Shown piece by piece: positions 6,196-58,645 of a DNA stretch of 64,000 nucleotides; the stretch's first letter is position 1, and each line of letters opens with the position of its first letter. Source of the DNA: a virus (lineage: Duplodnaviria; Caudoviricetes). Both the position numbers and the translations under genes were made by a program. Location of the stretch: IMG/VR virus record IMGVR_UViG_3300010340_001122, one strand, 5' to 3'. The notes under the pieces are model-generated. The model worked only from the letters and a program-made list of their open reading frames with translations. It searched no databases and was not told the DNA's origin.

Positions 6196-6945
6196 ATGAA
6201 TATTGAAGAATTTTTTAAAAATGCTTTTAAAAAAGTAAATATTGATTTACCTTTTAAGCGATTAGAATCAGATATTTCAAACTATCAAAAATATAATTTG
6301 TATGTCAATTTACCACCAAAGGTGGTGGATTTCGAGGAAATGTATTATAACTTATTAAGAGAAAATATTGTTCGTGAGATTAATCAGTATGCTTTAAAAG
6401 TTATTATTGGTGATATAAAATCTAAGGGAAGTGTTAATTTTATTGACGTGATAGATATCAATGATAATACTAATTATAGCACAATTATCAGTATGTCAAG
6501 AAAAATTGTTAGTGAGATTAAAAATCTTAATTTACCTAATGTTATCACAAATGGTAGAATAGCTTCAGATTATCTTATGGATTCTCCAGGGTTTAATACA
6601 TATCCGATTAAAACTAGTTTAGATAGATTTAATACCTTTACAAAACATGGAAATCTTTTTGGCAGTATTGATGTTTATCTCGATTCATATATGAAATGGA
6701 ATGATGATTTCATTTTATCTTATGATGATGTCTATTATGATTTATCTGATATAAAAATCAATATTAAACAAGATCCTTCAATTACTCCAGTTCTTGAAGT
6801 TGAATTTATGATATATCATAATATTATTAATCCAAAGTTGACGTATATTGTAGAAAATGTAACTTCAACTGCCTATTCAAAATATAAATCTGAATTAAGA
6901 AATAAACGAATTGATAATATATTAGATGATGATAAAACACCTTAA
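6196..6945 (+). CDS. Truncated T4 gp23-like major-capsid-related protein
   Basis: ENIVREIN, VITNGRIAS and GNLFGSIDVYLDSY resemble gp23 TEIMLEINRE, FIIASRNV and GVLGGKYRVYIDQY (alignment from memory); only 249 aa. Confidence 0.5.
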   Translation: MNIEEFFKNAFKKVNIDLPFKRLESDISNYQKYNLYVNLPPKVVDFEEMYYNLLRENIVREINQYALKVIIGDIKSKGSVNFIDVIDINDNTNYSTIISMSRKIVSEIKNLNLPNVITNGRIASDYLMDSPGFNTYPIKTSLDRFNTFTKHGNLFGSIDVYLDSYMKWNDDFILSYDDVYYDLSDIKINIKQDPSITPVLEVEFMIYHNIINPKLTYIVENVTSTAYSKYKSELRNKRIDNILDDDKTP

Positions 6946-7303
6946 TCGAATTTATAAACTTGGATATGATATTGAGGTCGTTTGGAATAAACAGATTCAA
7001 ATAACATATGATTTCAATAGAATTTCAGGATTTGAAGAGTATGATCCAGTCTCTGTACTTATTTATGTACATGATTTCTGGAATGAATCTTTAAATTTTC
7101 AAAAGTGTTTAGAAGAAACTTGTGAGATATTTTATTCTTGGTATTCCGATAATCATAAGATGATATTAAAATATCTTGAGAATCCTCAAAAGAAATTCGA
7201 TCATTTCGCTTCAAGATCAAATATAGACAGTTTATCACTCGGTGATGTTAGTTCACAGGTGAATCGAGGAATGAGAATTGATGATATATTAGATGATTAT
7301 TGA
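6926..7303 (+). CDS. Hypothetical protein with C-terminal RxxRIxxIL tail
   Basis: 125-aa ORF ending RGMRIDDILDDY. Confidence 0.65.
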   Translation: MMIKHLNRIYKLGYDIEVVWNKQIQITYDFNRISGFEEYDPVSVLIYVHDFWNESLNFQKCLEETCEIFYSWYSDNHKMILKYLENPQKKFDHFASRSNIDSLSLGDVSSQVNRGMRIDDILDDY

Positions 7304-7566
7304 GCTTCATCAAGTGCGTCTTGAAGAACGTTTTGAAAAGCCATATATTGATCTGTATCTCCTTCATCATATATATCGGAGACTCCACTTTCAAAGTCTC
7401 TTATAGCATTTCTGAAATTATCGACTAATTTTCTATATTTTGAAGATTGTTTAAGTTCATCATATACATTATCATCGATAGTGGATTCATTTATTTTAGA
7501 TTCTTCTAATTCTTCTATAGCATCAATTTTGTCTTTAACCATATCTGGACTAAGATTCCAATCCAT
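7297..7566 (-). CDS. Hypothetical acidic protein
   Basis: 89-aa ORF with natural composition. Confidence 0.55.
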   Translation of the reverse strand: MDWNLSPDMVKDKIDAIEELEESKINESTIDDNVYDELKQSSKYRKLVDNFRNAIRDFESGVSDIYDEGDTDQYMAFQNVLQDALDEAQ

Positions 7567-7666
7567 TTTATGAGTTACTTTATTATACTTAATTCTTGGA
7601 TTTCCAATTAATTTTTGTCTTTCTGAATTAGGTTTACTATATATAAATATATTATATTTGTAAATT

Positions 7667-8125
7667 ATGAATCCTCACAAAAAATTAAGAGAGTTGGGTT
7701 TCAAGAAGACCAATTTTTATAAGCCAGGTAGTCATCCTGATACTTATGAATCTATGATGGTGCTTGATAATGAGGATACTAAATGGGAGTATAGAGATGG
7801 AAAAAGAGTTTCTGTTAAAGTTGAAAAAATACATCCTAAGTCTAGCTCATTTTGGATACTAAAGTATAGTGATAATTATATTTTGTGGTGTTTGGTTAAG
7901 AATCATCTTATAGATAAGATTTGGCTTGAGAATAAATCAGGTAAAAGTCTTGGAAATAGGAGAATACTATATTATGGTAGAAATATAGAGGATGAAAGAT
8001 TAAAACTTATATTTGATATCTCTAATCGTGATCATAATCCACTTGAAGGTAAGAATCAAATTATGAATATTTTACCTAAAGAGATTAAAAGAGATTTTTT
8101 ATTGGATCAACTATTTGGATTTTAA
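7667..8125 (+). CDS. Hypothetical protein
   Basis: 152-aa ORF starting 6 nt after TATATTTG (7653-7660). Confidence 0.7.
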   Translation: MNPHKKLRELGFKKTNFYKPGSHPDTYESMMVLDNEDTKWEYRDGKRVSVKVEKIHPKSSSFWILKYSDNYILWCLVKNHLIDKIWLENKSGKSLGNRRILYYGRNIEDERLKLIFDISNRDHNPLEGKNQIMNILPKEIKRDFLLDQLFGF

Positions 8126-8145
8126 TATATAAAACCATATATTTG
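8114..8145 (+). promoter_or_regulatory. Bacteroidota-type promoter for the release-factor transcript
   Basis: TTTG 8114-8117, 20-nt spacer, TATATTTG 8138-8145; same ctatttgg/tatatttgta contexts as the tmRNA promoter. Confidence 0.7.
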
Positions 8146-57433: not shown

Positions 57434-58110
57434 TTTTCTTGAGGTTCAAACCACCAATTAAAATATATAAAATTATCACCAATTAGTGTATATTGTTCAG
57501 AATCATATTCGAATATGATTCTATCATCATATGATTTTAAAACTTCAATAATAGAGTTATTAGGCAAATTTAACATTTTACCAGTTTTACTAGAGTAACA
57601 AATTATTTCATCTTTTAATAGTTTAAATTTACCAAACTGTGGTTTTAACCAATTTTTAATAGATTTTATTATTAATCCTTTAATTTTTATAACCCATTCT
57701 TTTGTTTGTATTAAATCAAAGTCTTTGAAAACTTCGGATTTAAATTCCGAATTACCTGTTACGTCATTAATTATTCCCCAATATTCATCCTCATCTATTA
57801 TGAATGAAATATAAACATCATATTTATAAGATGTTGATTTTACTATTCTTATGATTTTAAGATTAGAAACATCTTGATCATCAAGAGATAATTTAGATTT
57901 TAATGATCTATAACTAGATGTATTTTGAAGAGATTTAGTTAATGTTCCTATTTTAGAAATTGCATTTCTTATTATATCTTCATGTTTATCAAATGCATTA
58001 ATTGATAGTGATGGATCATCTACATGTATAGCTGATCCTACAGAATCCGAATTTAATCTTTGTGCATTAAATTCTGTAAATTCTAAAATTAATTTCTTTG
58101 ACCTTTTCAT
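57430..58110 (-). CDS. Hypothetical protein
   Basis: 226-aa ORF. Confidence 0.7.
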   Translation of the reverse strand: MKRSKKLILEFTEFNAQRLNSDSVGSAIHVDDPSLSINAFDKHEDIIRNAISKIGTLTKSLQNTSSYRSLKSKLSLDDQDVSNLKIIRIVKSTSYKYDVYISFIIDEDEYWGIINDVTGNSEFKSEVFKDFDLIQTKEWVIKIKGLIIKSIKNWLKPQFGKFKLLKDEIICYSSKTGKMLNLPNNSIIEVLKSYDDRIIFEYDSEQYTLIGDNFIYFNWWFEPQEN

Positions 58111-58142
58111 ACTTAATATATATTAAAACTTAAAATCACTAT

Positions 58143-58448
58143 ATGAAAATTAAAAAGTTTAATGAGAATGAAATACCTGATTTATCAACTGAAAGAGCTG
58201 ATGAAATTGTTGAAAATTTGACAGAGTTATCATCTCATATAAATCAAAAGAATGAAATTATCGATTCATTTATAAATGAATTAAATAATTTTAGAAGTAG
58301 TAAGAAATCTACTAATGATCAAATAGATGATTCAATTGCAAATCTTCAATTAATACGTGGATCTTTTACTGATGCTGTTGATAAAATTGATAATGTTGTG
58401 AATAATATGAAAGATTACAACAAATCAGGTCGTAAATACATATACTAA
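58143..58448 (+). CDS. Small coiled-coil protein
   Basis: MKIKKFNEN start; heptad pattern. Confidence 0.7.
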   Translation: MKIKKFNENEIPDLSTERADEIVENLTELSSHINQKNEIIDSFINELNNFRSSKKSTNDQIDDSIANLQLIRGSFTDAVDKIDNVVNNMKDYNKSGRKYIY

Positions 58449-58450
58449 GT

Positions 58451-58645
58451 ATGATTGAAATTGGTAAAAAAAGTAAGGATTTAGAATCTGGTTATGTATG
58501 GGTACCTTATATAATATCATATGATGTTGTGGCTTCACCAGGTTTTTCTGGTGCATCAATGATATCCAGATATCAGAATACTAAAATTAAAAAGATAAAA
58601 AAAATCCTCGAAAATATAGAGGATTTTAATTTTATTTCAAGTTAG
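58451..58645 (+). CDS. Small protein resembling the C-terminal region of gp23 major capsid
   Basis: IGKK...ESGYVWVPYI...F.....SRY versus gp23 VGYKG..DAGIYYAPYV...FQP....TRY (from memory). Confidence 0.5.
   Translation: MIEIGKKSKDLESGYVWVPYIISYDVVASPGFSGASMISRYQNTKIKKIKKILENIEDFNFISS

Follow-up and report, generated by a model that had tools for sequence, protein, structure and literature searches.

Introduction

Much current research is devoted to bacterial receptors for conserved virion proteins, among them Avs, SpbK, CapRel and Lit, and the phage counter-measures known so far are few. Known phage anti-defence mimics and antagonists, such as the DNA mimic Ocr, the small Avs inhibitors and Nip, which acts against SpbK, are not copied from parts of the phage's own virion proteins, and no such case is listed in a November 2026 review of phage countermeasures. 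Here we analyze a stretch of 64,000 nucleotides from the virus record IMGVR_UViG_3300010340_001122 (hereafter the window), in which four small open reading frames (ORFs), named P0001 to P0004, resemble segments from the major capsid protein (MCP) or from the portal protein of T4-type phages and share a common C-terminal tail. Like Ocr, the Avs inhibitors and Nip, these excerpts are small, fast-evolving and accessory, and lie in non-structural regions; by analogy, the logic that we propose for them would likewise be competition for a recognition site.

In phage T4, the clip of the portal protein gp20 stands out from the capsid and is the docking site first of the packaging ATPase and then of the neck, and a free gp20 peptide comprising residues 288-311 binds gp17 and inhibits packaging in vitro (PMC4493910). 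The portal clip is also the docking site of SpbK and part of what Avs4 binds (PMC12847820), and bacterial STAND receptors have been reported to sense core phage proteins (PMC13728456). As for the tail, a short terminal motif common to otherwise unrelated proteins is also found in the T4 capsid-targeting sequence, in encapsulin cargo-loading peptides and in the C-terminal coat-binding helix of scaffolding proteins.

Our comparisons show that the lineage of the window and its distant relatives maintain a class of small genes, each copied over 40-200 residues from a virion-morphogenesis protein, and most of them carrying the tail. We did not find such genes described in the literature on huge phages, T4 head assembly or anti-defence. 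The function that we favor, to which we would give roughly one chance in three, is that these mini-proteins are competitive mimics antagonizing sensors of virion proteins.

Results and Discussion

Homology of the excerpts to capsid and portal proteins

The window has a G+C content of 27% and is DNA of a huge, Mahaphage-like phage. Its closest public records are the uncultured phages LR745206, LR756500, LR756501 and LR756502 (462-735 kb, with LR745206 at 635 kb), and near relatives were found on metagenome contigs of up to 480 kb. A capsid hidden Markov model (HMM) was built from four capsid proteins of the LR huge phages, located by the Pfam family Gp23, and was searched together with a portal HMM against all 317 window ORFs of at least 30 amino acids. 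The top matches of the capsid HMM were exactly P0001 (E = 8.9e-9, capsid positions 440-495), P0002 (E = 1.6e-7, positions 326-376) and P0003 (E = 0.069, positions 495-522), the next ORF reaching only E = 4.5, and P0004 was the top window ORF by the portal HMM (E = 0.0022). These searches revealed no complete capsid or portal gene in the window. When the four ORFs were compared to Pfam and PHROGs, P0002 alone gave matches, all of them sub-threshold, the one in Pfam being to the family Gp23.

Family alignments were then used to place the excerpts on their parents. For P0001, P0002 and P0003 they were made from 38-49 homolog clusters each and compared by hhalign to the capsid protein of a close relative (P0131, 574 residues). 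Positions 55-199 of the P0001 family align with MCP 357-541 (E = 7e-7), the P0002 family with MCP 336-381 (E = 3.5e-6) and the P0003 family with MCP 507-549 (E = 1.4e-6), while the P0004 family, consisting of nine sequences from metagenome loci, aligns with positions 268-342 of the portal alignment (E = 1.8e-8, probability 95%). A first-pass annotation, made from the sequence alone, had described all four ORFs as intact and as resembling pieces of T4-type head proteins; the frames do translate as it had given them (Table 1), and the resemblance is significant at the profile level.

P0002 maps to T4 gp23 residues ~275-312, in agreement with the spine-helix assignment proposed at first pass, and by analogy with the HK97 topology this region would be the long spine helix that follows the insertion domain. 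In turn, the P0002 family profile recovers the complete capsid gene from each of the four LR huge phages, with E values from 3.5e-7 to 7e-5. The family comprises 38 clusters of 60-69 residues, except for one partial member of 41 residues. P0002 overlaps the gene on either side of it, thioesterase upstream and thyA downstream, so that its translation is probably coupled to theirs.

P0003 corresponds to gp23 residues ~436-479, where the C-terminal strands bear the P-Y and R-Y motifs, and here too the segment named earlier was the right one. Its profile finds the capsid gene in 4 of 4 LR genomes (E = 1.8e-7 to 3e-5), and the family counts 41 clusters of 64-76 residues. In addition, the subfamily to which the window's P0003 belongs is a mosaic, in which residues 2-26 resemble MCP 506-530 (E = 1e-3) and residues 14-37 resemble positions 139-162 of the prohead protease (E = 2e-6) in pairwise comparison. 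The protease stretch concerned sits just before the scaffold part of the protease.

P0001 had been taken for an isolated middle and C-terminal piece of gp23. The homology stands, and maps to T4 gp23 residues ~293-473, but the description as an isolated piece does not. P0001 is devoid of the N-terminal ~350 amino acids of the real capsid protein, and has no N-arm, linkers or E-loop/insertion region. Its AlphaFold2 (AF2) model is of low confidence (pLDDT 52, pTM 0.52) and displays a long helix followed by strands, and essentially all top Foldseek matches of this model in PDB and BFVD are HK97 capsid proteins, with TM values of 0.25-0.34 and E values of 7e-4 or weaker. Its Atlas feature neighbors are also capsid families (score 0.89), which we treat as a lead only. 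Homologs form 49 clusters of ~250 residues, and a scan of IMG/VR found no relatives. Taken from these alignments and models, P0001 is best described as an ancient, compact paralog of the phage's T4-type capsid protein rather than as a fragment.

The putative HK97-like core of P0001 would also suit a minor component of the virion, in which P0001 could for example be a capsid subunit specialised for the vertices or for the vicinity of the portal, and the small ORFs could be internal head proteins loaded via their tail; T4 provides precedents in the vertex capsid paralog gp24 and in its small core proteins. We consider such a role improbable, since the parts by which capsomers are tied together, the N-arm and the E-loop/insertion region, are missing from P0001, the tail is C-terminal, unlike N-terminal tags, and the genes are located outside of the head module.

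The gp20 segment that had been recognized in P0004 belongs to the clip domain and maps to T4 gp20 residues 279-358, which include the peptide 288-311. The family thus aligns to the same part of the portal as this peptide (clip strands, tip and helix alpha6), and it is the stretch 288-311 that P0004 retains; unlike the laboratory peptide, however, P0004 occurs naturally, as a conserved gene that also encodes a leader of its own and the shared tail. A relative of 107 amino acids, P0137, carries the same leader and keeps an undeleted, almost-consensus portal segment, which ties the P0004 family to the portal beyond doubt; the window's P0004 has suffered an internal deletion and lacks the middle hairpin and the W-F-P strand that its relatives keep. 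Although P0004 is homologous to the portal family (PF07230), it does not have the full wing, stem, clip and crown architecture with which a portal protein can form a dodecamer, as it covers the clip region only (positions 268-342 of 578). The AF2 model, of low confidence, includes a hairpin, a helix and a tail helix; from this model and that of P0001 we drew only on the secondary structure and on which proteins the fold search matched. A match of P0004 to a TPR protein of 944 amino acids was treated as a false positive.

P0001, P0002 and P0003 therefore match the capsid proteins of the clade by HMM and hhalign, though they fall below the cut-off of the Pfam family Gp23 (PF07068) or are not hit by it. 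None amounts to a complete capsid subunit with N-arm, E-loop/insertion linkers and P and A domains, P0002 and P0003 each covering ~45 of 574 residues and P0001 positions 357-541. Judged from these alignments, the three are derivatives of the capsid protein and not capsid proteins themselves. The excerpts are only 24-33% identical to their present parent, which points to ancient copying. The blocks represented by the capsid excerpts are the best conserved ones of the capsid protein: the invariant fractions are 0.61, 0.77 and 0.82, versus 0.43 overall and 0.27 in the region free of excerpts.

Table 1. Excerpt genes, their tail-coding stretches, neighboring genes in the window, and related ORFs in LR745206
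Feature	Length (aa)	Location	Strand	Description
P0001	249	6196..6945	+	Putative compact HK97-fold paralog of the MCP; spine helix to C-terminal strands, then shared tail
P0001 tail		6892..6930	+	Tail-coding stretch
ORF125	125	6926..7303	+	Overlaps P0001 end; same C-terminal tail; dN/dS 0.20; kept in relatives
P0002	69	25287..25496	+	Capsid spine-helix block (about residues 5-50) and predicted helical tail
P0002 tail		25428..25484	+	Tail-coding stretch
P0004	82	44125..44373	+	Portal clip excerpt (beta-hairpin, tip, helix alpha6), own N-terminal leader, shared tail; first gene before nrdB
P0004 tail		44317..44355	+	Tail-coding stretch; AF2 helix over residues 65-76
P0003	64	58451..58645	+	C-terminal capsid P-domain strands, shared tail; co-oriented behind 101-aa ORF
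P0003 tail		58577..58630	+	Tail-coding stretch; nearly invariant across family
NADAR-domain gene and Dam-type (D12) methyltransferase gene		4729..6195	+	Directly upstream of P0001
Split family-B DNA polymerase, helicases, DnaB-like helicase		window		Replication genes
NrdB, thymidylate synthase, Ro/TROVE protein, NADAR and Dam-type methyltransferase		window
Protease-strand copy	53	LR745206		Tail-bearing
Permuted copy of portal clip elements	84	LR745206		Tail-bearing; E = 6e-6 with P0004 profile
ORF with portal W-F-P element	50	LR745206		Tail-bearing
Partial tail tube protein copy	131	LR745206		Tail-bearing
Scaffold-repeat copy	83	LR745206		Found by sequence search, not by tail scan; similar tail judged by eye
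Copy of capsid residues 7-118	157	LR745206		Found by sequence search; 41% identity; similar motif internal, not terminal

The shared C-terminal tail

The first-pass annotation had noted a similar ending in the four ORFs. All four do end in a motif of the R-x-x-K-I-x-x-I-L-D/N type, and so does a fifth, ORF125, which overlaps the end of P0001. In the window the tail is strong only in these five ORFs, an observation that is circular, since the same five ORFs seeded the matrix; ORF125, with a score of 19.9, the third highest in the window, was itself among the seeds. An independent test was performed with a matrix derived from the window lineage alone, which was scanned over the complete genome of LR745206. 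Scores of at least 10 bits were obtained for 20 of the 949 C-terminal 25-mers, compared to 0.24% of internal segments, an enrichment of ~9-fold.

Among relatives the residues of the tail are fixed although synonymous changes occur in their codons, and codon choice for them differs between the four families, indicating that the tail is constrained at the protein level; a DNA-level motif was rejected on the same grounds. The tail is predicted to be helical, on the basis of one model. The N-terminal part of ORF125 has no detectable parent protein, and this ORF was rejected as an excerpt of the portal or of the capsid protein, being similar to neither.

Other identities for the tail were considered as well. 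A correspondence to the T4-like N-terminal tags of the clade was not supported: the tail is C-terminal, and scores with the N-tag matrix range from -12 to 5.5, with the P0003 tail alone exceeding the 99th percentile. The tail matrix did not pick out the clip helix, the scaffold C-terminus or an internal scaffold motif. From the terminal targeting peptides named in the Introduction the tail differs in that it is C-terminal and scores poorly against the N-terminal T4-like tags and the scaffold C-terminus of the clade. A sliding-clamp binding motif was also discarded, the C-terminus of the LR745206 polymerase being different (classical M-D-I-F-G-G-F type).

The N-terminal tags are a separate feature of these genomes. 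Under a strict pattern, a tag resembling the T4 capsid-targeting sequence (M-K-x-L-K-x-F-x-E type) is present in ~7 of 78 window genes, with examples at 58143, 31920(-), 29637(-), 44081(-), 60667 and 12967(-), and in 52 of 969 genes of LR745206. This motif is distinct from the C-terminal tail.

Conservation and selection

We calculated dN/dS values against relatives by the Nei-Gojobori method. They are 0.32-0.38 for P0001, 0.28 for P0002 and 0.37 for P0003, compared to 0.08-0.22 for neighboring genes and 0.13 for the capsid gene, and in one comparable pair of lineages the amino-acid identity of the excerpts is 64-74% versus 91% for the capsid protein. These values indicate that the excerpt genes are under selection and yet evolve comparatively fast, faster than their parents. 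Conservation was one of the points on which the first-pass annotation had made its proposal depend, and it is present: purifying selection (dN/dS 0.28-0.38 for P0001-P0003) maintains these sequences as small genes across many assemblies and in distant huge phages.

Three of the four ORFs have orthologs in LR745206, whose capsid protein is 70% identical, and the fourth has a permuted relative there. Positions are also conserved in that genome: P0001 follows the Dam methyltransferase gene, and P0003 has a small tagged ORF on one side and a convergent DUF5856 gene on the other.

The vicinity is rich in homing endonucleases and split genes, and the genomes of huge phages tolerate extra DNA, so that the excerpts could be pictured as functionless remnants of partial duplication, to which homing endonucleases or recombination, for example, could have given rise. 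This explanation is very improbable and largely refuted by the data above: dN/dS is well below 1, dozens of assemblies have the frames intact and at constant length, orthologs are still present in a lineage with a capsid protein that is only 70% identical, and the tails are nearly invariant despite synonymous variation of their codons.

Fast evolution relative to the parents, together with low identity to the phage's own parent proteins while the most conserved blocks are retained, would also be expected of weapons directed at competing phages. The excerpts would then act as dominant-negative fragments, blocking co-infecting relatives at assembly or packaging and sparing the phage's own diverged machinery, with the inhibitory T4 clip peptide as a precedent. 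We find this unlikely. P0002 is 33% identical to the phage's own capsid protein and 35-38% identical to capsid proteins of Xanthomonas jumbo phages over short stretches, which gives no sign of a preference for foreign capsids, and it is hard to explain how conserved interfaces of the phage itself would be spared.

Tail-bearing genes in relatives

High tail scorers in LR745206 are mostly ORFs of 50-240 amino acids, and they include copies of other virion-morphogenesis proteins (Table 1). For several of these tail-bearing ORFs the parent assignments are weak (E ~1e-3 in a database of 314 proteins) and are leads only. The small tail-bearing ORFs of LR745206 form arrays, located at 0-6 kb and 630-631 kb, at 327.7-328.9 kb and at 506-508.5 kb, which suggests a local expansion of this gene class in that genome.

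In LR756501, an ORF of 101 amino acids at locus L026 (15166-15351, minus strand) copies the crown and C-terminal region of the portal (Portal_T4 374-431, E = 1.8e-5). On visual inspection, the shared tail is absent from its end.

Genomic setting

The window covers a region of huge-phage replication and nucleotide-metabolism genes (Table 1). P0001 starts one base past the stop of the Dam-type methyltransferase gene, on the same strand, and the order NADAR gene, methyltransferase gene, P0001 recurs in the relatives L027 and L032 as well as in LR745206. ORF125 completes this operon, and the other excerpt genes adjoin thyA and nrdB, also in non-structural operons, so that the neighbors listed at first pass (a Dam-like methyltransferase, thyA and nrdB) were correctly identified. 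In L027, which is a close relative, ~6 kb separate the P0001 ortholog from the capsid gene upstream of it.

The 9-mer TAATATATA occurs at 23 sites in the window (for example at 1069, 1478, 4525, 17309, 33169, 40455, 42340, 54286 and 58114), and many of its copies are located just upstream of gene starts, making it a candidate promoter element of the phage. The P0001 operon and the P0003 operon are each preceded by TAATATATA.

These locations bear on the main rival to sensor antagonism, namely that the excerpts regulate the phage's own head assembly and DNA packaging by capping assembly interfaces or competing for them. A free clip could keep the large terminase or a neck protein bound as long as proheads are not ready, pieces of capsid protein and protease could determine the timing or the size of a very large capsid, and the tail could target the mini-proteins to the assembly site. 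The parents are mainly proteins that co-assemble in the prohead (capsid protein, portal, protease and scaffold), plus the tail tube, and the T4 clip peptide that binds the terminase and inhibits packaging is a direct precedent (PMC4493910). In addition, P0001 is found ~6 kb downstream of the capsid gene in relatives, P0003 follows an ORF with an N-terminus similar to the T4 capsid-targeting sequence, itself behind TAATATATA, and the P0001 operon is also placed after TAATATATA. On the other hand, P0002 and P0004 lie within nucleotide-metabolism operons, an identity of 24-33% and an evolution faster than that of the parents would be odd for partners that fit the phage's own machinery, and the tail is not significantly similar to targeting-type N-terminal tags, to the scaffold C-terminus or to the clip helix. 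We see regulation of the phage's own assembly as possible, though somewhat doubtful.

Proposed function

In the reading that we favor, antagonism of virion-protein sensors, each mini-protein would present a conserved recognition element of a virion protein to the normal binder of that element. Host sensors, of the Avs, SpbK, CapRel or Lit type, would be occupied by the mimics yet not activated, as activation would call for the complete or the oligomeric ligand, and the common tail would be a shared handle, through which the mimics either oligomerise or reach one and the same partner. The portal-clip mimic could alternatively be aimed at the large terminase or at a neck protein. The first-pass annotation had suggested decoys or antagonists of capsid and portal sensors, or dominant-negative inhibitors of competing phage assembly, and our data support this in part.

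We favor antagonism because the clip is a documented target of sensors and because the capsid excerpts are the invariant blocks on which a pattern receptor would rely. The range of parents also partly resembles the targets reported for STAND receptors, the operons concerned are non-structural, with NADAR and Dam methyltransferase genes present in one, and the excerpts evolve faster than their parents.

Several points weigh against this proposal. No sensor of virion proteins is known for the host, which is probably one of the Bacteroidota, and a mimic of the ligand could equally trigger a sensor instead of blocking it. With TAATATATA present before the P0001 and P0003 operons, late expression is possible, and so is a role in assembly. 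No decoy model requires a tail, and some tail-bearing ORFs have no detectable parent protein. Finally, the portal clip is not more conserved than the remaining portal, with an invariant fraction of 0.25 versus 0.23.

A broader form of the antagonist proposal, which we regard as rather doubtful, is that the tail-bearing genes constitute a modular library of excerpts, each joined to a handle. A dozen or more mini-proteins would then each show one conserved recognition element of the capsid protein, portal clip, protease, scaffold or tail tube, and their joint effect would be a broad antagonism of bacterial pattern-recognition immunity directed at the core phage proteome, comparable to decoy strategies but at the level of proteins.

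The mini-proteins are conserved, sequence-defined and clonable candidates, either for sensor antagonists or for natural regulators of capsid assembly and DNA packaging, and one of them, P0004, matches a T4 portal peptide already known to bind the terminase. The shared tail also offers a simple search key with which more members, and the tail's own binding partner, could be found in huge-phage genomes.

Other features of the window

The thymidylate synthase ORF that follows P0002 (25480-26727) encodes 415 amino acids, compared to 276 for its orthologs in the relatives L028-L030 and 352 for the copy in LR745206. The window's enzyme carries an insertion of ~140 residues, and its PHROG matches are split around residues 137-262. 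GIY-YIG homing endonuclease genes adjoin thyA in one relative (L030:5023-5907) and the Dam methyltransferase gene in another (L032:8332-8970), and are absent from these places in the window.

NrdA (38790-42319) is interrupted by an intein bearing a GIY-YIG endonuclease and is encoded in two ORFs, the first of which ends with the N-terminal part of an intein and the second of which opens with the C-terminal part; a free-standing GIY-YIG endonuclease gene (40485-41240) is located between the two halves. The family-B DNA polymerase ORF at 27691-29232 encodes the exonuclease domain and only the beginning of the polymerase domain, the gene being split. The remaining half is found ~100 kb away in LR745206, where it ends in the classical clamp-binding tail. 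Lastly, a Ro/TROVE-domain protein with a vWA-like part, unusual in phages, is encoded at 47861-49309.

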